A stretch of 64,000 bases of DNA from Candidatus Hydrothermus pacificus (GCA_002011615.1 MTOH01000002.1:207526-271525); one strand, 5' to 3'. Counted from the first letter of the stretch, positions 31,714 to 43,616 are shown. Notes: generated from the letters alone by a model not told the origin. Made by a program: numbers and translations.

Positions 31714-32094
31714 ATGCCAACAATTAATCAATTAGTTAAACATGGCAGAAAGCCAAAGATAAAAAAGTCTAAATCACCTGCTCTGGATTCCTGCCCTCAG
31801 AAAAGAGGGGTTTGTATAAGAGTGTATACAACCACTCCGAAAAAACCTAACTCCGCTCTTAGAAAAGTTTCCAAAGTCAGACTATCCAATGGAAGAGAGG
31901 TTATTGCCTATATTCCTGGCGAAGGACACAATTTACAGGAACACTCTGTAGTTCTTGTCAGAGGAGGCAGGGTTAAGGACCTTCCTGGTGTTAAGTATCA
32001 TGTGGTTAGAGGTAAATTTGATTGTGCGGGTGTTGAAGGCAGAAAACAGAGCAGGAGCAAGTACGGAACAAAGAGGACAAAAAAGGGAGGTTGA
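31714..32094 (+). CDS. rpsL: 30S ribosomal protein S12
   Basis: 126 aa; MPTINQL N-terminus and conserved PKKPNSA region. Confidence 0.95.
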
Positions 32095-32564
32095 TAATGC
32101 GAAGAAGAAAGGCACCTGTTAGAACGGTTTCTCCTGACCCGAAATACAATTCCACTATAGCGATGAAGTTTATAAACGACCTCATGCAGGATGGAAAAAA
32201 AAGTCTTTCTATGACTATATTTTACGGGGCCCTTGATAAGATAAAAGAAATTACAGGTGAAGATGGTTTTAAAGTTTTTGAAAAGGCAATAGAAAATGTT
32301 AAACCAAAACTTGAAGTGCGTCCCAGAAGAGTAGGTGGTGCGACCTATCAGGTTCCTGTTGAGGTCAGGCCGAGAAGACAACTGTCCCTTGCTATAAAAT
32401 GGTTGATAAAAGCGGCAAGAGAAAGATCTGAGAAAACAATGGTGGAAAGACTCGCAAAAGAATTTATTGACGCCTCAAAAAATGAGGGTAAGGCTATAAA
32501 AATTAGAGAAAATACCCACAGAATGGCTGAAGCGAACAGGGCTTTTGCTCACTTTAGATGGTGA
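32091..32564 (+). CDS. rpsG: 30S ribosomal protein S7
   Basis: 157 aa; conserved S7 motifs ([31 protein letters not shown]). Confidence 0.95.
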
Positions 32565-32568
32565 TTAA

Positions 32569-34602
32569 ATGAATAAGGAGAAAATAAGAAATATAGGATT
32601 GGCAGCTCATATAGATGCAGGTAAAACTACAACGACAGAAAGGATACTTTTTTATACGGGTAGAATTCATAGAATAGGTGAGGTAGATGAGGGAACAGCG
32701 ACCATGGATTGGTTGCAGCAGGAAAAGGAACGAGGTATTACAATATGGTCTGCTGCAACTACCTGTTACTGGAAGGAATACAGGATAAATATAATAGATA
32801 CTCCTGGACATGTTGATTTTACTGCAGAAGTTGAGAGGTCTTTAAGAATTCTTGATGGGCTCGTGGTTATCTTTTGTGCAGTAGGTGGGGTTGAACCTCA
32901 GTCCGAAACAGTATGGAGACAGGCAGATAAATTTGATGTGCCGAGAATAGTATTTATAAATAAGATGGATAGAATAGGAGCCGACTGTTTCAGGGTTTTG
33001 AAGGAGATTGAGAAGAAATTTGCGGTTAATACTGTTCTAATGCAGTTGCCTCTCGGAGCCGAGGAAGAGTTTAAAGGGGTAATTGACCTTTTGAGAGGGA
33101 AGAAACTTATATGGGATGTAGACGAAATCGGGGAAAGATATAGAGAAGAGGAAGCCAGTGAAGAAGAGATGGGTAACTGGAGAGAAGAGCTTTTCCTTTG
33201 CCTGGGCGAGCTTGACGATGAACTTGCAGAGAGATATATTGAGAAAAAAGATATAGAGCTTAAAAAAGTTAAGAGTATAATAAGAAAAGGGGTTATTGAA
33301 GGCAGAATAGTTCCTGTTTTTATCGGATCTGCGTTAAAAAATAAGGGGATTCAATGTCTGATTGATGCGATATGTGACTATCTTCCCTCACCGCTTGATA
33401 AAAGAGGTGTAATGGGTAAGATTCCTGGCAAAGAGGAAATAATTGAAAGAAAGCCTTCAGATGAAGAACCTTTTAGTAGTGTTGTCTTTAAAATTCAAAT
33501 AGATAAAAAACTTGGCAAACTCTCCTATACAAGAGTTTATTCTGGTAAAATCAAACCGGGACAGAAGATAATGAATTCTGCAAATGGAGAAATATTCAGA
33601 ATCCAGAGACTTTATCTGTTGCATGCTAATAGAAGAAACTCTCTTCAAGAAGCTGCGGCAGGTGAGATAGTTGGAATAGTGGGCGCAAAAAGGGTTAAAA
33701 CAGGAGATACTTTTTGTGATATTGATAATCCTGTTATTTATGAGGAAATGCTTTTTCCAGAGCCTGTTGTATCAATTGCGATAGAACCAAAGAGTATAAG
33801 AGAACTCCCAAAACTTGAGGAGTGCCTTGCTTTCATGCTTGAGGAAGACCCGACATTCAGGGTGAAAAGGGATGAAGAAACAGGGCAGTTCGTGCTCAGC
33901 GGTATGGGAGAACTTCAGCTTGACATATTGCTCGACAGGCTTAAAAGGGACTTTGGTCTGGAAGTCAGGTCTGGTAAACCGCAGGTTGCTTATAGAGAAA
34001 CAATTTCTGTTTCAGCAAGTGGGTATCATAAGTTTTCAAAAACAATAGGAGATGCTCATCATTTTGGTGAAGCCAACCTGAGCGTGCATCCTAATCCTCA
34101 GAAAGGTAATTACATAGAAATACCTGTGGATATCCCGGATGACTTTAAAGAAGTGGTGCGTGAATCTGTAAATACGATTCTTCTATTTGGTCCTCTTGCT
34201 GGTTATCCGGTAACTGACGTAAAAGTTGAATTTCACAAACTCTCAAAAGGCAGTAATGTAACTCCCCTTGGTCTTGGTAACGCGATTCAGGAAGCTTTGA
34301 GAGAAGCTCTTATAAAGGGAGACCCTATTCTTCTTGAACCTGTGGTTAAAATAGAGATTACAGTTCCCTCAGAGTTTGTGGGTAATGTTGTTGGTGACCT
34401 TGGAACAAGGAATGCCTCTTTGAAAAAAATTACAAAGGTGTCGGACTTTATTCAGAGGGTTTCAGCAGAAATACCTCTGAGGGAAATTTTTGGTTATGCA
34501 ACTACTTTGAGGTCATTAACTCAGGGAAGGGGTAACTTCTGGATGGAAATATCCCACTTTGCTCCTGTCCCTGAAGAGATAAAGAAGAAAATAATGATTT
34601 AA
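32569..34602 (+). CDS. fusA: Elongation factor G
   Basis: 677 aa; GTPase G1-G4 motifs ([21 protein letters not shown]) and EF-G domains II-V. Confidence 0.95.
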
Positions 34603-34614
34603 GGAGGTGTAAAG

Positions 34615-35829
34615 ATGGCAAAACAAAAATTTGAAAGAACAAAACCCCATGTCAATGTGGGGACTATAGGACATATAGACCACGGGAAAACAACCCTCAC
34701 GTCTGCCATTACAAAGGTTCTTTCTACCAAAGGACTCGCACAGGAAAGATCCTATGATGAAGTTGCAAAAGCTGATGCAAAGCTCTTCAGAAGAGATGAA
34801 ACCAAAATTTTGACTGTTAACCTTGCGCATATTGAATATGAGACCGAAAAAAGGCATTACGCTCATATTGACTGCCCGGGACACCATGATTATGTTAAGA
34901 ATATGATTACAGGTGCCGCACAGATGGATGGCTCAATACTGGTAGTTGCTGCTACTGATAGTGTTATGCCCCAGACAAGAGAGCATACACTTCTCGCAAG
35001 ACAGGTTAATGTTCCTTATATACTTGTATTTGTTAACAAAACAGATGCAGTTGATGACCCTGAACTTGTTGAACTGGTTGAAATGGAAGTAAGAGACCTT
35101 TTGAATAAATATGAATTTCCCGGTGATGATGTCCCTGTTATAAAAGGTAGTGCTTTGAAAGCTCTTCAGTGTGGTTGTGGAAAGAAAGAATGTGAGAATT
35201 GTGGGTCTATATGGCAACTCCTTGATGCAATGGATAGTTATATTCCCGAACCAAAAAGAGAAATTGATAAGCCTTTCCTGCTTGCAATAGAAGATATTTT
35301 CTCAATAACCGGTAGAGGAACTGTAGTTACAGGTAGAGTGGAAAGGGGAAAGATTACTCCCGGTGCTGAAGTTGAGATAGTTGGTTTTGGACCCACAAGG
35401 AAAACAGTGGTTACAAGTCTTGAGATGTTTAGAAAAACACTTGATGAAGCTATTGCAGGAGACAATGTGGGGCTTCTTTTAAGAGGAATTGGCAAAGATG
35501 AGGTGGAAAGAGGAATGGTTATTTCTACACCCGGTTCAATCACACCCCATACTAAATTTAAAGCAGAAGTTTATGTTCTTACAAAAGAAGAAGGTGGAAG
35601 ACATACTCCCTTTTTCAATGGTTACAGACCACAGTTCTATTTCAGAACGACTGATGTTACGGGTTCTATTAAACTTCCTGAAGGTAGAGAAATGGTTATG
35701 CCTGGTGACCATGTGAATCTGGATGTAGAACTCATGTATCCTGTGGCTCTTGAAAAAGAATTGAGGTTTGCGATAAGAGAGGGTGGTAGGACTGTTGGTG
35801 CTGGTGTGGTTACTGAAATAGTGGAATAA
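34615..35829 (+). CDS. tuf: Elongation factor Tu, with a Cys4 insertion in domain I
   Basis: 404 aa; canonical EF-Tu motifs ([21 protein letters not shown]). Carries [13 protein letters not shown] where E. coli has the GDAEWEAKILE loop. Confidence 0.95.
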
Positions 35830-36138
35830 ATGGAACAGAAGATAAGAATAAAATTGCAGGCTTTTGATCCGAGACTCCTGGATAAATCTGCAAGAAGAGT
35901 GGCTATGACTGCCCGGATGACAGGAGCGAGAGTATCAGGACCCATTCCTCTGCCGACAAGAAGAACATTGATTACAGTGATCAGATCCCCACATATTGAC
36001 AAGAGGTCACGAGAGCAGTTTGAATTGAAAATTCACAAAAGGTTGATAGAGATAAAAAGTCCCACGCCTGACACAATTGATAAATTATCAAGAGTGGAAA
36101 TACCTGCAGGAGTTGATGTGGTTATAAAGGTGGTATAG
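35830..36138 (+). CDS. rpsJ: 30S ribosomal protein S10
   Basis: 102 aa; [11 protein letters not shown]-terminus and conserved S10 core. Confidence 0.95.
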
Positions 36139-36140
36139 AG

Positions 36141-36788
36141 ATGACAGGGTTGATTGCGAAAAAACTTGGGATGACACAGATTTTTGATGATAGAGGAAAT
36201 GTTGTGCCTGTTACAGTTCTGGATTTTTCAGAATGTTATGTTCTGGACCTCAGAGAAGAAGAAAATGATGGTTATAACGCTGTTAGACTCTGCTACGGAA
36301 ATGTAAAAGCAAAAAGATTGAACAGACCTATACTTGGAGTCTTCAAGAAGATTTTTGGAGATAAGGATTTTTATCCAGCAAGATTTGTCCTGGAATTAAG
36401 AACTAAGGGTTCTGTTGATTTTAAGCCCGGTGAAAAAGTTGATGCTGAAAAGCTTTTCCAGATAGGAGAGAAGGTTGATGTGATTGGTAAAACCAAAGGC
36501 AGAGGGTTTACTGGTGTTATGAAGAGATGGAATTTTTCGGGTGGACCTTCTTCTCATGGCTCAATGTTCAAAAGAAGACCCGGTTCAATAGGTCAGACCA
36601 CAGACCCTGGAAGAGTCTGGAAGGGCAAGAAAATGGCGGGACATTATGGTAACGAGAGGGTTACCATTCACAATCTGGAGGTGATGAAAATAGACAAAGA
36701 TAGAGAAGTTATTCTGCTCAAGGGGTCTGTCCCGGGACCTGCTGGTTCATTTGTTGTGATACGGAAAGCAAAAAGGAGGAAACTGTAA
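36141..36788 (+). CDS. rplC: 50S ribosomal protein L3
   Basis: 215 aa; GLIAKKLGMTQIF N-terminus and GKTKGRGFTGVMKRWNF motif. Confidence 0.95.
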   Translation: MTGLIAKKLGMTQIFDDRGNVVPVTVLDFSECYVLDLREEENDGYNAVRLCYGNVKAKRLNRPILGVFKKIFGDKDFYPARFVLELRTKGSVDFKPGEKVDAEKLFQIGEKVDVIGKTKGRGFTGVMKRWNFSGGPSSHGSMFKRRPGSIGQTTDPGRVWKGKKMAGHYGNERVTIHNLEVMKIDKDREVILLKGSVPGPAGSFVVIRKAKRRKL

Positions 36789-36791
36789 GAG

Positions 36792-37430
36792 ATGGCAATA
36801 AAGGCACCTTTATATAATTTACAGGGAGAAAAAATAGGAGAAATAGATTTGAAGGAAGATATTTTCGGTCACGAACCGAACGTGCATCTTTTATGGGAAT
36901 ATGTTAGAATGTATCTTGCGAATCAAAGAGCGGGCACAGCGTCCACCAAGACAAGGGCAGAAGTAAGAGGTGGTGGAAGAAAACCATGGCCTCAAAAACA
37001 TACCGGGAGAGCAAGACATGGGTCTATAAGGTCTCCGATATGGAGAAAAGGAGGAGTTGCTTTTGGTCCAAAACCCAGAAACCACCATTATCATATTCCC
37101 AGAAAGGCAAGAAGACTCGCAACAAAACAGGCAATTTCTGACAGGGCAAAGGAAGGCAGAATAATGGTTCTTGAGGACATTAAGTTTGAAAATGGAAAAA
37201 CAAAAGAAGCTATTAGTCTTTTTAAGAAAATAGGGATTTATGGCAAGAAGATTCTCATTGCCACTCATAGCATGGATAAATCTGCAATTTCACCCTTGAG
37301 AAATCTTGATAAGACAAGAATTATACTGGGTAAAGATTTAAATGCTTATGAAGTCTTGAATTCTCAATATGTTCTTTTTACAAAAGAAGGGCTTGAACAG
37401 TACATAAAAATTCAGGGGAGTAAAAAATGA
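36792..37430 (+). CDS. rplD: 50S ribosomal protein L4
   Basis: 212 aa; conserved L4 region (KPWPQKHTGRARHGSIRSPIWRKGG). Confidence 0.95.
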   Translation: MAIKAPLYNLQGEKIGEIDLKEDIFGHEPNVHLLWEYVRMYLANQRAGTASTKTRAEVRGGGRKPWPQKHTGRARHGSIRSPIWRKGGVAFGPKPRNHHYHIPRKARRLATKQAISDRAKEGRIMVLEDIKFENGKTKEAISLFKKIGIYGKKILIATHSMDKSAISPLRNLDKTRIILGKDLNAYEVLNSQYVLFTKEGLEQYIKIQGSKK

Positions 37431-37720
37431 AAGACCCCAGAGATATAATTATTGAACCAATAGTTACAGAAAAAAGTGTGCATCTTAGAGATACACATAA
37501 TCAGTATGCATTTAAAGTCGCCATAAATGCTACTAAACCTGAGATAAGGAAAGCTGTAGAAGACCTGTTTAAGGTTAAAGTAGCCGATGTTAAAGTTATA
37601 AATGTAAAACCAAAAAAGAGAAGGCTCAGAACAAGGAAGTTTGGTTATACTTCTTCATGGAAAAAAGCTTATGTAAGATTAAAAGAAGGTGATAGAATAC
37701 CAATCTTTGAAGGAGCGTAA
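37427..37720 (+). CDS. rplW: 50S ribosomal protein L23
   Basis: 97 aa; position between L4 and L2 and L23-like sequence. Confidence 0.9.
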
Positions 37721-37721
37721 A

Positions 37722-38540
37722 ATGGGAATTAAAAAGTACAAACCTGTTACACCATCAAGAAGGTTTATGAGTTCTATTGATTTTTCAGAGCTTACCAAAA
37801 AAGAACCCGAGAAATCACTTGTGGTTCCTCTTAAAAAAACAGGTGGTAGAAACAATCAGGGCAGGACTACAGTAAGATTCAGAGGAGGAGGGCACAAAAG
37901 ACTGTACAGAATAATAGACTTCAAGAGAAATAAGGATGGAATTCCTGCAAAGGTTGTGAGTATAGAGTATGACCCGAATAGAACTGCGTGGATTGCTTTG
38001 CTGCAATATCGTGATGGAGAAAAACGATATATAATTGCGCCTCATGGTTTAAAAGTTGGAGATGAAGTTCTTTCAGGATCAGGTGCTCCTTTAAAGACCG
38101 GTAACACATTAACTCTCGCAGATATTCCAGAAGGAATTGAAATCCATAATATAGAGTTGATTCCTGGGAGAGGCGGTCAGCTTGTCCGTGCTGCAGGTGC
38201 GTCAGCCCTTATACTTTCCAAAGAAGGTGGTTATGCTCATGTTCAGATGCCTTCAGGTGAAATAAGAATGATTAATGTGAAGTGTAAAGCAACTATTGGT
38301 AGAGTCAGCAATGTAGACAACGAAGTTGTTGTTACAGGTAAAGCGGGAAGAACACGGTGGCTCGGTAAAAAGCCCCATGTAAGAGGGGTTGCAATGAACC
38401 CTGTAGACCATCCTCATGGAGGAGGAGAAGGAAGAACAAAAGGCAAGATTCCCAAAAGTCCCTGGGGCTGGTACACAAGAGGGAGAAAAACCAGGAAGAA
38501 AAAATCATCAAACAGGTTTATAATCAAAAAGAGAAAATAA
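37722..38540 (+). CDS. rplB: 50S ribosomal protein L2
   Basis: L2 N-terminus [14 protein letters not shown] and C-terminal [10 protein letters not shown] motif. Start set at the internal ATG (ORF-track start 37689 overlaps rplW). Confidence 0.95.
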
Positions 38541-38638
38541 AACTTTCTACAAATTCTTTTAATTATCATCTGCCAAAAAGTTTAATTGCTCAATACCCTC
38601 TAAAAAAGAGAGATGAGGCAAAATTACTTGTTGCGAAT

Positions 38639-39553
38639 TTGTGTAACGATTCTGTAGAGCATACTAAATTTAAATTTATCTACAGGTACATGAAAAAAGG
38701 TGACGTGCTTATCTTGAATAATACAAAGGTCATACCTGCCAGAATAATTGCGAGAAAAGAGACAGGAGGTAAAGTTGAAATGCTATTTATTGAACAGCTG
38801 AACAAAAATAAATTCACAGCTCTTGTAAAGGGTAAAAACCCTGAGGGCAAAAAACTGTATGTTAAAGACTATATCTTAAAATGTTTTAAAGAAAAAGGAC
38901 AATATGTGTTTGAGATTCAGAATTCAGATTGTAAAAATTTTCTTGATACTGTGGGGTTACCCCCTTTACCTCCTTATATAAGGAGAGCACCCGATGATAT
39001 TGACAGATACTATTATCAGACTGTTTTTGCTCAGAAAGACGGTTCTATTGCGGCTCCTACCGCAAGTTTGCATTTTACAGAAGAGCTTTTAAAGAAAATA
39101 AAAAAAGAAGGTATCAAAATAAAATACATAAATTTAAAGGTGGGAGTGGGAACATTTAATCCTGTAAAAGAAAAATATATAAGTATGCATAAAATGGATG
39201 AGGAATATTATGAAATACCCGATGATACCATTTCTGAAATTATAAAAGCGAGAAAAGATAATAATAAAATTTTTGTTTGTGGAACTACATGCGTTAGAGC
39301 AATTGAATCATACGCTTTAACAGGTAAAAAATCAGGTTTTACAGATCTTTTTATTTATCCTCCTTTTGAATTTAAATTTGTAGATACTATTATTACAAAT
39401 TTTCATCTACCCAGATCTACACCACTTGCACTTGTCTGTGCTTTTGGAGGTAGAGAAAAAATTTTAAAACTTTATGAGCTTGCCAAGAGAACAGGATACA
39501 GGTTCCTAAGTTATGGTGATGCTATGATGCTTCTTAAAAATAATGAGAATTGA
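38639..39553 (+). CDS. queA: S-adenosylmethionine:tRNA ribosyltransferase-isomerase QueA (start uncertain; conserved N-terminus extends upstream to about 38540)
   Basis: QueA motifs (NNTKVIPAR, LPPLPPYI, APTASLHFT, GTTCVRAIES, HLPRSTPLALV). The in-frame region 38540-38638 encodes FNYHLPKSLIAQYP, matching the E. coli QueA N-terminus, but holds no ATG/GTG/TTG. Confidence 0.85.
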   Translation: MCNDSVEHTKFKFIYRYMKKGDVLILNNTKVIPARIIARKETGGKVEMLFIEQLNKNKFTALVKGKNPEGKKLYVKDYILKCFKEKGQYVFEIQNSDCKNFLDTVGLPPLPPYIRRAPDDIDRYYYQTVFAQKDGSIAAPTASLHFTEELLKKIKKEGIKIKYINLKVGVGTFNPVKEKYISMHKMDEEYYEIPDDTISEIIKARKDNNKIFVCGTTCVRAIESYALTGKKSGFTDLFIYPPFEFKFVDTIITNFHLPRSTPLALVCAFGGREKILKLYELAKRTGYRFLSYGDAMMLLKNNEN

Positions 39554-40277: not shown

Positions 40278-40543
40278 ATGTGAAAGAAAACATAGAGGAG
40301 CTGATTGATCAGGCAAAGATTCTTTTGTTTTCCCAGAATTATAAAGAAGCAGAAAAAATTTTAAAAAAGATTTTAAAGTTGGATAAAGACAATGTGGATG
40401 CCCTTTATCATCTTGGAATTCTTTATGAGACAGTAAATGAGCATGAAAAAGCAGAGGAAATTTATTTGAAAATCCTTGAAAAAGACCCTGATAATAAAGA
40501 AACAAAAGAAAGGATGGAAAGGTTAAAAAATGAAAAATTTTAG
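40274..40543 (+). CDS. Small TPR-repeat protein
   Basis: 89 aa; two TPR-like helical repeats (AEKILKKILKLDKDNVDALYHLGILYE...AEEIYLKILEKDP). Overlaps neighbours at both ends. Confidence 0.55.
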   Translation: MNVKENIEELIDQAKILLFSQNYKEAEKILKKILKLDKDNVDALYHLGILYETVNEHEKAEEIYLKILEKDPDNKETKERMERLKNEKF

Positions 40544-43500
40544 TAACTTTCCTTTGCTTTTAATTGAAGGTATTCCCAGGCCACTTGTGATTTTCAACTC
40601 TGATGGTATGCTGATATATGCGAATGAAAAGGGTAACAATTTTATAAAGGAATTTTTTAGTGATAACGATGACAGGATTAAAGAATTTCTTACTTCTCTT
40701 TACCAGTCAGAAGAAACAACAGACATTAAAAATCTTAATAAAAGATTAGATTACAAAATTTTAAATCTTATGGATGATACCAAAGTTCTATTTATAGAAA
40801 GAGAAAAAAGTATTATCTCCCCTCATGACCTGATGCAATTCTTTGCTGAAATTTCTCAGATTTCAGATATAAATGCGATATTAAACAAAGTTTCAGATTT
40901 CATTTTACATCAGATGGGGGCAGGTAAAGTTACTATATTCCTCTATAGTGAGAGGGAAAGAGTTTACAGACGAATGGCACTCAGTGTGAGACCGCCTTTT
41001 CGCAAAGAAGATTTTAAAAAGGATATGTTTAACTCAGGGGAAGGTTTGACTGGTAAAGTGATACAGCTGGGGACAACCTTCTATGCCCCGGATGTAGAAA
41101 AAGCCGAACACTATTACAGGTCATCTCCCCATGAGAAATCCGAATTAGTAATTCCTATAAAGGATGACCGTATGGTTTACGGGACCATAGGCGTGGGGTC
41201 TGAAAAAGAGAATGCATTTAGTAAAGAAGACATAAAAACAGTTGAAAAGATAAGCAAGTGGCTGTTGTTTATAGTTAAAAACCTTTATGTTTATCAGGAC
41301 GTTTTGAGAGAGAAAAAGGCGATTGAAATTATTGGCAGGATTTCTGAGATATTTAAGAATAAAAATATCAAACAAGAATACAAAGAATTCATTAATCTCT
41401 TGATAAGAGAATATGGATTTTCCGGAGGCGGAATAGATTGTGAAAATATAAATTTCTGGGTAGGAGAAGGAGAACAGGATTTTGGAAATCTACTTAAAGA
41501 AAAATCTGAAAAGCTCTTAAGTGGTTGTTTTTCAACTGAAAAATTTAATTTTTATGTATTCCCCCTGGAGAACCTGGGAGGATTTTTTGCTTTTTCATCA
41601 AAGAGTTTTTATTCTAACCAGGAGATTGAACATATAGAGGATGTGCTGTCATTCTTGGAAAGTTTCCTCGTAAGGGAAATTAGAAAAGAGATTGGTTCAA
41701 TTCACAGGAAAATCTTTGGGACCTTTATAAAGGGAATTCACGATAACAGAAAAGCCAGCGAGATATACGAAGATTTGTGTAAAGTTTTAAATGAAATTTT
41801 TGATAGTGAAAAAAGTTTTATTATTTATGAAAAGGGTAAGAAATGGAATATGGTTGCTTCTTTTCCCAAGGAGATAGAAATTGATTATTCTTTTCTGGAC
41901 CTGAACATAAAGGATGAGTTTTCAGAAGAAAGGATTACAATGTTTTTTGAAAGAAAAGAAGGTTCTGTGGTTATATCTGTGCTCAAACCACGAAATCTCC
42001 ATTCCATTCGACTGGTTAAAGACACCCTTGGTGATTACCTGGACATGATTTTAAAACTTGAGAGATTCCAGAGAAATTCTGAATTACTTTCAACTTTGCA
42101 GAAACTACTGCAGGCTGAAGTGAGTTCTTTTTCCCTAGTAGAATATCTTGACGAAATATCTAAATTGATAAAAGAAAATCTTGGTTACGCCTTTGTGGGT
42201 ATACTCCTTAGAGAAGGCGACTATTTAAAATTGATTTCTGCATGGGGGTCAGAGAAATATAAAGATTTAAATGTAGACTTAAAAATAGGAGAAGAAGGAA
42301 TTTCAGGTGTTGCCTACAAAAAAGGAGAAACTGTTTACTCTCCTGATGTTAGCAAAGACCCATTTTATGTAAAGGTGTCCGATGAAATAAGTTCAGAAAT
42401 TTCTGTTCCCTTAAAGAGCCCAAAAGGACTTCTTGGAACACTCGTGATTTCATCGTCAAAACCTTATGCATTCTCTGATGAGGATATTGCTTTCCTTGAG
42501 ACTCTCGCTGAGCAGATTTCACTCTTTATCCAAGAAAGGCTTGATAAAGAGGAAAAAGAAGAAATTATCTCTTTTCTGGAAGAAGAATCAAAGTTTAACG
42601 AAATGATAATCAGAAATTTGCCTATAGGTATTGTCGTGATTGATAATGATTTAAAAATTAAAAGAGTTAATGAGGGAATGGTACTGCTTCTTAAAAGAAA
42701 TGTGAAGGAGATGTTAGGGAGTAAGATATGTGAGATTTTATGCAGTCATGAGGAAGAGGGTTATTGCAAAATAAAAGATTCCTTTCTTAATAGAAAAATC
42801 CTTTTTAAAGAAAAGTTTATTATTGATGTTGAAGGGGAAAGTGTGCCCATGGCTGTTACTTCCAGTTTTATTTATACATCTTATAATGTGATAAGTGGAA
42901 TCATACTCATGGTGGAAGATATAAGAGAGGTTGCCAAACTTGAGGAACAACTCAGAAGAAGTGAAAGACTTTCTGCAATAGGTAAAATCGCAGCCTACAT
43001 GGCTCACGAAATTAAGAACCCACTTGCAAGTATTTCCACGGGCATAGAATTCGTGAGTGAAAAATTACCACCTGATGAGAGTGTAAGGGGTTATATGAAT
43101 ATGATTTTAAAGGAGATATACAGGCTTGACAGACTTATAAAAAATCTTCTCAGCTTTGCAAGTAGAAAGCCTTTAAATAAAGTTTCTGTTAATGTTTTTG
43201 AAATACTTAATGAGTGCATAACTCTTTTAACTCCAGAGATAATAGGTAAGGATATAAAGTTAAAGACTGATTTTAAAGAAAAAGAATTGATGGTACACCT
43301 TGACCCTGATCAATTCAAAGAAGTTGTCCTGAATCTTGTTAGAAACGCGATAGATGCCATAGACAAAGATGGAGAGGTAGAACTTGGATTTGAAAAAGTG
43401 GGAAGCAGAGTTGTTTTCTGGTGTAAAGATAACGGTAAGGGAATAAGAGAGGAATATGTTCATAATATATTTGAGCCATTTTTCTCCACTAAAAAAGGTG

Positions 43501-43616
43501 GTTCGGGTCTGGGGCTTGCAATTGTTCATAAGATTGTTGAGGACCATGGTGGTAAGATAGAAGTTGAGTCTGATTATGGTAAAGGAACTATTTTTAAAGT
43601 TTACCTTCCTCTTTGA
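40530..43616 (+). CDS. Cytoplasmic multi-domain sensor histidine kinase (GAF and PAS domains, HisKA, HATPase_c)
   Basis: 1028 aa, no TM segment; GAF-like regions, a PAS-like region, H-box (AAYMAHEIKNPLASI), N box (NLVRNAIDA), G1 (DNGKGI), G2 (GGSGLGLAI). Confidence 0.85.
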   Translation: MKNFSNFPLLLIEGIPRPLVIFNSDGMLIYANEKGNNFIKEFFSDNDDRIKEFLTSLYQSEETTDIKNLNKRLDYKILNLMDDTKVLFIEREKSIISPHDLMQFFAEISQISDINAILNKVSDFILHQMGAGKVTIFLYSERERVYRRMALSVRPPFRKEDFKKDMFNSGEGLTGKVIQLGTTFYAPDVEKAEHYYRSSPHEKSELVIPIKDDRMVYGTIGVGSEKENAFSKEDIKTVEKISKWLLFIVKNLYVYQDVLREKKAIEIIGRISEIFKNKNIKQEYKEFINLLIREYGFSGGGIDCENINFWVGEGEQDFGNLLKEKSEKLLSGCFSTEKFNFYVFPLENLGGFFAFSSKSFYSNQEIEHIEDVLSFLESFLVREIRKEIGSIHRKIFGTFIKGIHDNRKASEIYEDLCKVLNEIFDSEKSFIIYEKGKKWNMVASFPKEIEIDYSFLDLNIKDEFSEERITMFFERKEGSVVISVLKPRNLHSIRLVKDTLGDYLDMILKLERFQRNSELLSTLQKLLQAEVSSFSLVEYLDEISKLIKENLGYAFVGILLREGDYLKLISAWGSEKYKDLNVDLKIGEEGISGVAYKKGETVYSPDVSKDPFYVKVSDEISSEISVPLKSPKGLLGTLVISSSKPYAFSDEDIAFLETLAEQISLFIQERLDKEEKEEIISFLEEESKFNEMIIRNLPIGIVVIDNDLKIKRVNEGMVLLLKRNVKEMLGSKICEILCSHEEEGYCKIKDSFLNRKILFKEKFIIDVEGESVPMAVTSSFIYTSYNVISGIILMVEDIREVAKLEEQLRRSERLSAIGKIAAYMAHEIKNPLASISTGIEFVSEKLPPDESVRGYMNMILKEIYRLDRLIKNLLSFASRKPLNKVSVNVFEILNECITLLTPEIIGKDIKLKTDFKEKELMVHLDPDQFKEVVLNLVRNAIDAIDKDGEVELGFEKVGSRVVFWCKDNGKGIREEYVHNIFEPFFSTKKGGSGLGLAIVHKIVEDHGGKIEVESDYGKGTIFKVYLPL

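Follow-up and report, generated by a model that had tools for sequence, protein, structure and literature searches.

In a 64,000-nucleotide stretch of the Candidatus Hydrothermus pacificus genome (GCA_002011615.1 MTOH01000002.1:207526-271525; hereafter the window, with positions counted from its first letter), the gene directly after rplB, encoding ribosomal protein L2, is queA, which lies in the -1 frame relative to rplB and lacks a canonical start codon for its conserved N-terminus. Comparison with related genomes suggests that translation of queA probably begins by weak non-canonical initiation inside rplB, which would produce QueA with an N-terminal extension. The evidence for this consists of a queA frame that has been kept free of stops well into rplB in every member of the clade, and of start codons within rplB at the upstream end of that open stretch in a sister lineage.

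The queA frame is open from 38369, the preceding in-frame stop being the TAA at 38366-38368, and it contains no ATG, GTG or TTG up to 38638; the first canonical codon is TTG 38639, and the next ATG is at 38690. The first-pass annotation of this DNA had reported the same gap, which was confirmed on the sequence. It had also listed ATA 38537, ATC 38504 and 38507, and CTG 38570 as near-cognate codons in the queA frame, all of which are real, but had overlooked CTG 38462, CTG 38468 and ATT 38585. With 90 open codons 5′ of its first canonical start, queA is an outlier among the 68 open reading frames (ORFs) of the window, the other 67 of which have 21 or fewer.

By its family matches, the queA product is a full-length member of the tRNA preQ1(34) S-adenosylmethionine ribosyltransferase-isomerase family, with predicted enzymatic activity. 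It scores 382.7 bits against the NCBIfam QueA equivalog model NF001140 (cut-off 324), with residues 27-358 covering model positions 2-345 of 346, and 358.1 bits against TIGR00113 (cut-off 267); the Pfam PF02547 match spans positions 2-322 of 322. As in other members of the QueA family (TIGR00113/PF02547; PDB 1VKY, 1YY3, 1WDI), the match extends from model position 2 to the end and the N-terminal motif is present. In contrast to other QueA, the gene in this clade directly follows the last gene of the S10 operon and appears to carry, or need, an N-terminal leader within rplB. NCBIfam position 2 aligns at codon 38546; the family Met thus falls at about 38543, and ATA 38537 lies two codons before it. 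The solved QueA structures 1VKY, 1YY3 and 1WDI align as the NCBIfam model does. The segment between the rplB stop and TTG 38639 aligns with the N-termini of the T. maritima (1VKY) and B. subtilis (1YY3) enzymes. It includes the conserved sequence SFNYHLPKSLIAQYPLKKRDEAKLLV, encoded at 38555-38632, so that part of the N-terminus does lie upstream of TTG 38639, as had been claimed; initiation at that codon would cost the protein model positions 1-35 (NCBIfam QueA) or 1-33 (Pfam). The crystallised chain of T. maritima QueA bears 12 additional N-terminal residues, implying that an N-terminal extension is tolerated.

The junction between the two genes was compared in 14 sequences from different samples, labelled candidate division WOR-3 by their sources, three of which came from a metagenome scan. 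The window, L002 and L003 constitute subclade A and the other 11 sequences subclade B; the three additions from the metagenome scan all belong to subclade B, that scan having found no additional subclade A member, and a QueA scan of genome contigs gave no match. The order tuf-rpsJ-rplC-rplD-rplW-rplB-queA-trkA-TPR-GAF/PAS kinase is common to all 14, as is the junction AAA-ATA-A/G, in which the rplB Lys codon AAA is followed by TAA or TAG. At the natural N-terminus of QueA, all 14 lack a canonical start. Outgroup queA genes (about 70 loci, at most 51% identity) all begin with ATG, GTG or TTG where a start is expected, and none has rplB upstream. The closest QueA relatives, at 64-88% identity, are nearly all called either too short (240-320 residues) or too long (358-362 residues). 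Literature searches yielded no earlier account of an overlap between rplB and queA, nor of WOR-3 queuosine genes.

The lack of a canonical start does not reflect loss of function. For the 33 codons between ATA 38537 and TTG 38639, the ratio of nonsynonymous to synonymous substitution rates (dN/dS) among the window, L002 and L003 is 0.09-0.19 (dS 0.68 or less), and the family residues S6, Y9, L11, A17, Y19, P20, L21, R24, D25, E26, L29, L30 and V31 of the QueA N-terminus are invariant in the clade. Over the whole gene, omega is 0.10-0.16 within subclade A, with dS of 0.5-0.8 between members. The gene is under purifying selection and is not a pseudogene. Together, the low dN/dS and the invariant residues indicate that queA is functional, that its N-terminus is translated and that the start-less state is long-lasting.

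Upstream of this N-terminus, the queA frame remains stop-free for 28-56 codons 5′ of the rplB stop in every clade member, while the remainder of rplB contains 18-32 stops in the -1 frame. Controls came from an RplB scan of genome contigs, in which relatives were all at 67% identity or less; 80 genomes in which rplB is followed by rpsS in the normal way were surveyed, and the 39 with a G+C content of 0.45 or less were used. Their -1 frames stay open over a median length of 2 codons and over 24 at most, none reaching 28. When the synonymous codons of the last 24 L2 residues were re-drawn using each lineage’s own ribosomal-protein codon usage, the simulated probability of having no -1 stop was 0.01-0.09 per lineage. 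A similar picture emerges from at-risk sites, defined as codon pairs in which a first codon ending in T creates a -1 stop (TAA, TAG or TGA): codons ending in T occupy 0 of 88 such sites in the tail versus 36% elsewhere in the same operons (Fisher’s test, 3e-17, a value inflated by shared ancestry). Directly 5′ of the protected stretch, GGT-AAA and GGT-AGA, both of which create -1 stops, do occur. Synonymous sites are saturated between the subclades (proportion of synonymous differences, pS, 0.64-0.96), and the lineages are therefore nearly independent at these sites. Overall, the -1 frame is significantly depleted of stops relative to both codon usage and orthologous controls, as is characteristic of dual-coding sequence.

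No amino-acid constraint on the extension was found, and synonymous divergence in the rplB tail equals that in the rest of the gene. As this divergence is not lowered, the constraint is one of having no stop, not of encoding a particular peptide, which is what one expects of a leader that needs only to be read through. The possibility that the open frame is a by-product of purine richness or T avoidance was considered and rejected, given that the +1 frame has stops at codons 4-5, that harmless T-ending codons (TAT, TTT, CCT-TC, GTT-TC) are used in the rplB tail and that the low-GC controls are closed.

In subclade B, the PWGW motif of L2 is encoded by CCA/CCT-TGG-GGA-TGG, which reads as ATG (or TTG)-GGG-ATG in the queA frame. 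The ATG at codon -24, formed by GGA-TGG, is invariant in all 11 sequences, although GGA makes up only about 45% of Gly codons, and the nearest -1 frame stops are just 5′ of it, at -29 to -36. NCBI annotates subclade B QueA from these ATGs inside rplB, with lengths of 360-362 residues. The simplest reading of these sequences is that the real start in subclade B lies within rplB and adds an extension of 24-26 residues. In subclade A, the same motif is encoded by CCC-TGG-GGC-TGG, giving CTG 38462 and CTG 38468 at the positions homologous to the ATG/TTG and the ATG of subclade B, respectively; because of this homology to the subclade B ATG start, CTG 38468 or CTG 38462 would be the most likely point of entry in the window. 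CCC and GGC account for 22% of Pro and 11% of Gly codons in the ribosomal-protein genes of the window (jointly about 2.4%), and at the Pro and Gly of PWGW any third base other than C would put a canonical NTG into the queA frame. The use of C-ending codons here could reflect selection to weaken or remove an internal start in the window lineage, or could be due to chance. A further near-cognate site, ATC 38504, has the sequence AGGAAG 5-7 nucleotides 5′ of it, and the ATC-ATC pair is missing from subclade B.

These observations suggest a mechanism in which a functional queA follows on from the last gene of a truncated S10 operon in a candidate division WOR-3 lineage, with the queA frame beginning some 23-25 codons 5′ of the rplB stop, inside rplB and in its -1 frame. 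In the sister subclade, initiation would occur at the conserved ATG of the Gly-Trp codons in PWGW, yielding a 360-residue QueA with a Lys/Glu-rich N-terminal extension of unconstrained sequence. In the subclade of the window, initiation would instead take place at a near-cognate codon, most likely CTG 38468 and possibly also CTG 38462 or ATC 38504; the first of these would have queA overlap rplB by its first 73 nucleotides. In E. coli, measurements over all 64 codons put initiation at CUG, AUA, AUC and AUU at 1-2% of the AUG level (bioRxiv 10.1101/063800). On a very abundant ribosomal-protein mRNA, initiation at about 1-2% may suffice to supply enough of a tRNA-modifying enzyme. Historically, queA may have been joined to rplB via a standard overlap, ATGA or TAATG (in the L005 group, ATA is followed by ATT); if the rplB stop then changed, that ATG could have been destroyed, with an in-frame NTG from the invariant PWGW Trp codons taking over, and the window lineage may later have lost its internal starts or tuned them down to CTG.

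Several points weigh against initiation at the CTG codons. Neither CTG 38462 nor CTG 38468 has a Shine-Dalgarno (SD) sequence at a useful distance, and both are inside the heavily translated rplB ORF, where elongating ribosomes should interfere with initiation. Both ancestral ATGs are now CTG, so the sites could be unused in this lineage. ATA 38537, which every clade member shares, is located almost exactly at the natural N-terminus of the QueA family. Finally, within subclade A alone, the case for maintenance of the open frame is weak and only suggestive: about 2.6 stop-creating changes would be expected, by our own estimate from the dS values of the three related genomes, and 0 were seen (P ~0.07).

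Near-cognate start codons that hold expression down are known from E. coli, where infC and pcnB start with AUU. Like these genes, queA is functional and conserved without an ATG, GTG or TTG, and low-abundance QueA could plausibly be made at a level of about 1% from CTG, ATA or ATC. Unlike infC, queA shows no evident autoregulatory logic of the IF3 type, and unlike both genes its candidate start sits inside another gene, without an SD, the codon itself being only a candidate.

An alternative is that ribosomes finishing rplB at its TAA restart on the overlapping ATA 38537, giving QueA of natural length. The first-pass annotation had offered non-canonical initiation as one of three possibilities, which in general agrees with our findings, but had tied it to rplB termination at this ATA, which is not the best-supported site: the frame is kept open for at least 28 codons further upstream, and a start at ATA would have no need of this. 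We consider re-initiation at ATA unlikely, although a number of observations speak for it. The ATA is invariant in the 14 sequences, where rplB without exception ends in AAA followed by TAA or TAG; this invariance is, however, only weakly significant, given that 67-76% of Lys codons are AAA and about 60% of stops are other than TGA. The codon lies two codons 5′ of the aligned QueA family Met, and GAGGAG is found 3 nucleotides 5′ of it in about half of the subclade B sequences. AUA yields 1-2% of the AUG level in E. coli (bioRxiv 10.1101/063800), but in the same organism coupled expression was lost altogether when an AUGA junction was turned into AUAA (PMC9955659), so that an AUAA junction is inactive for coupling there. 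Translational coupling seems to be a standard mode in this genome, which favours a coupled start; were ATA the start and more QueA of use, however, one A-to-G substitution could supply ATGA and still leave rplB with a stop, yet this was never seen. Instead of the canonical start at the upstream stop that defines ATGA- or TAATG-type pairs, the junction is ATAA or ATAG in 14 of 14 sequences, and there is no ATG, GTG or TTG within 100 nucleotides downstream of it. Re-initiation also leaves unexplained both the stop-free codons upstream, at least 24 in number, and the invariant ATG of subclade B. Four-base overlaps of ATGA (or GTGA/TTGA) number at least 12 in the 64 kb, and TGA ends 27 of the 68 ORFs (40%).

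Out-of-frame overlapping coupled gene pairs have been described elsewhere (Huber and Soppa, 2023, PMC10666635; Inokuchi and Kaji, 2023, PMC9955659), and queA resembles them in being the downstream gene in the same operon, in having its natural N-terminus on the upstream stop and in having a junction one base away from ATGA. It differs from them in that the junction codon is ATA, in that the conserved open frame reaches about 70 nucleotides into rplB as opposed to the usual overlap of 1 or 4 nucleotides, and in that the window lineage is without any canonical start.

It has also to be considered whether a -1 frameshift in the Lys-rich tail of rplB lets a few ribosomes enter the queA frame and make an L2-QueA fusion, which in our judgement is improbable. 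The position of queA, exactly -1 to rplB in a frame that is kept open, would suit this, as would the AAA/AAG runs of the tail, which, read in the rplB frame, include perfect A AAA AAG heptamers in L013 and in L010, and the lack in subclade A of a canonical start anywhere in the open frame. However, among 12 aligned lineages the slippery heptamer is conserved in neither position nor sequence, and no conserved or stable RNA structure was found downstream (RNAalifold consensus of -2.26 kcal/mol, trivial hairpins; window fold z = +0.59). The invariant ATG of subclade B is not something that frameshifting would lead one to expect, and a slip late in the tail needs no 24 open codons. A fusion of 600 residues might, in addition, disturb ribosome assembly, and we know of no precedent for an L2-QueA fusion of this size. 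Programmed -1 frameshifting, as in dnaX (A AAA AAG) and the transposases of insertion sequences, is recognised by a conserved heptamer of the form X XXY YYZ together with a conserved stimulatory RNA structure downstream or else an SD positioned a set distance upstream. Like the frames entered in this way, queA lies at -1, lacks its own start and comes after a tract rich in Lys codons; unlike them, it has neither a conserved heptamer nor a stimulatory SD or hairpin, and its sister lineages have an ATG of their own. On a bolder reading, improbable as a whole, a functional housekeeping enzyme would have been maintained in this WOR-3 lineage for a long time (dS 0.5-0.8) without any canonical start, through either CTG within the L2 gene or -1 slippage into an L2-QueA fusion.

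A truncated or decaying queA, either starting at TTG 38639 or ATG 38690 with some 35-50 N-terminal residues gone or persisting as a pseudogene, is very improbable. Gene callers did choose ATG 38690 here (287 residues) and assorted downstream starts in relatives, as truncation would have it, but neither TTG 38639 nor ATG 38690 has an SD ahead of it, the downstream starts vary between relatives, omega is about 0.10 over the entire gene and the 33 codons upstream of TTG 38639 combine a dN/dS of 0.09-0.19 with invariant family residues. The same low dN/dS and invariant residues, together with the coordinates of the family-model matches, contradict the earlier suggestion of a truly truncated QueA, and the idea that TTG 38639 might be the conserved start in relatives was not borne out, as callers select a different downstream codon in each. 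The downstream near-cognates CTG 38570 and ATT 38585 were rejected as starts, the clade-invariant residues S6 and Y9 being encoded 5′ of both.

That an ATG was destroyed by a sequencing or assembly error (for example, with a true junction of ATGA, the common overlap from which ATAA differs by one base), the first-pass annotation having allowed for such an error, is hardly credible and is already refuted by the comparative sequence data, as an independent JGI metagenome contig, L001, is the same at the junction while differing elsewhere (1 mismatch in 11.9 kb), and the same ATA recurs in 13 more sequences, which derive from different samples and species and have 64-88% QueA identity. The sole difference between the window and L001 over the 11.9 kb, A versus G at 42447, falls inside the GAF/PAS histidine kinase gene (40530-43616) and implies that the two are separate assemblies or strains. 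Two explanations based on the genetic code were tried and discarded. Reassignment of TGA, which might have accounted for the absent ATGA, conflicts with the many ORFs that end in TGA (27 of 68) and with the common ATGA overlaps, and a reading of ATA as Met conflicts with its share of about 50% among Ile codons and with its occurrence where L2 has a conserved Ile.

An out-of-frame overlapping start and a near-cognate start codon are both known phenomena, and what would be new here is their combination. On the bolder reading above, whether queA is entered by way of CTG or slippage, synthesis of an enzyme that modifies the tRNA wobble position would be tied firmly to the making of ribosomes, as a small and constant share of it. 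An overlap of about 70 nucleotides in which a universal ribosomal protein gene and a tRNA-modification gene are both encoded has been kept clade-wide, and the one lineage with only near-cognate codons lends itself to studying how bacteria achieve very low expression linked to the ribosome, and to what extent an important gene can be supported by initiation that is non-canonical or internal. For annotation, the consequence is that callers shorten this QueA by 35-50 residues in at least 9 related assemblies (240-320 residues), full-length calls being made only in the ATG-bearing relatives. In terms of method, the avoidance of stop-creating synonymous codons, combined with orthologous controls, can show where translation of a start-less gene must begin. 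The locus also documents a break, after rplB, of the otherwise highly conserved S10 operon. Coordinates of the features discussed are collected in Table 1.

Table 1. Features of the rplB-queA junction and examples of four-base overlaps in the window.
Feature	Position	Strand	Remarks
rplB (ribosomal protein L2, 272 residues)	37722..38540	+	Stop TAA 38538-38540; last gene of the truncated S10 operon
Proposed queA coding region	38468..39553	+	CTG 38468 (alternatively CTG 38462) to TGA 39551-39553; about 361 residues
CTG-GGG-CTG, candidate near-cognate starts	38462..38470	+	From rplB codons CCC-TGG-GGC-TGG (PWGW motif)
Dual-coding stretch, rplB C-terminal tail	38471..38536	+	-1 frame stop-free; -1 amino-acid sequence not conserved
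Candidate slip sites	G AAA AAA 38498-38504; C AAA AAG 38525-38531; A AAA TAA 38534-38540	+	In the Lys-rich tail
ATC-ATC, minor alternative near-cognate start	38504..38509	+	AGGAAG 38493-38498 ahead; subclade A only
ATA overlapping the rplB stop (ATAA)	38537..38539	+	Clade-invariant; rival start site
Conserved QueA N-terminal 33 codons	38540..38638	+	Purifying selection; 5′ of the first canonical start
TTG, first canonical start in frame	38639..38641	+	Judged not to be the biological start
Four-base start/stop overlaps, examples	891/894, 1484/1487, 21222/21225, 32091/32094, 37427/37430, 40274/40277
Four-base start/stop overlaps, further examples	51119/51122, 51397/51400, 59288/59291, 62084/62087, 62824/62827

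The rplB product has full-length Pfam Ribosomal_L2_N and Ribosomal_L2_C matches, the gene callers used for L001 give the same coordinates, and the L2 C-terminus FIIKKRK* is conserved in the clade. A mechanical ORF list places the rplB start at GTG 37689; ATG 37722 is almost certainly the real one, because GAAGGAG lies 6-7 nucleotides upstream of it, the rplW stop at 37720 adjoins it and the gene callers agree. The genes before rplB are arranged as rpsL-rpsG-fusA-tuf-rpsJ-rplC-rplD-rplW. In this WOR-3 clade, the S10 operon (31714-38540) is broken after rplB and is followed by queA-trkA-TPR-GAF/PAS histidine kinase-response regulator; a tblastn search found no rpsS, rplV or rpsC in the entire 64-kb window, while another WOR-3 genome, L065, has an ordinary rplB-rpsS junction. 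Just past the rplB stop, subclade B (e.g., L006:3073-3100) carries a direct repeat, ATAGATT-N7-ATAGATT, that also provides a second stop in the rplB frame 4 codons beyond the first; the window lineage is without it. In L006, the GAF/PAS kinase gene (L006:5058-7083) is split into ORFs of 114 and 954 residues, probably by a frameshift or an assembly error in that metagenome-assembled genome, the near-identical L007-L009 having a single ORF of 1026 residues.

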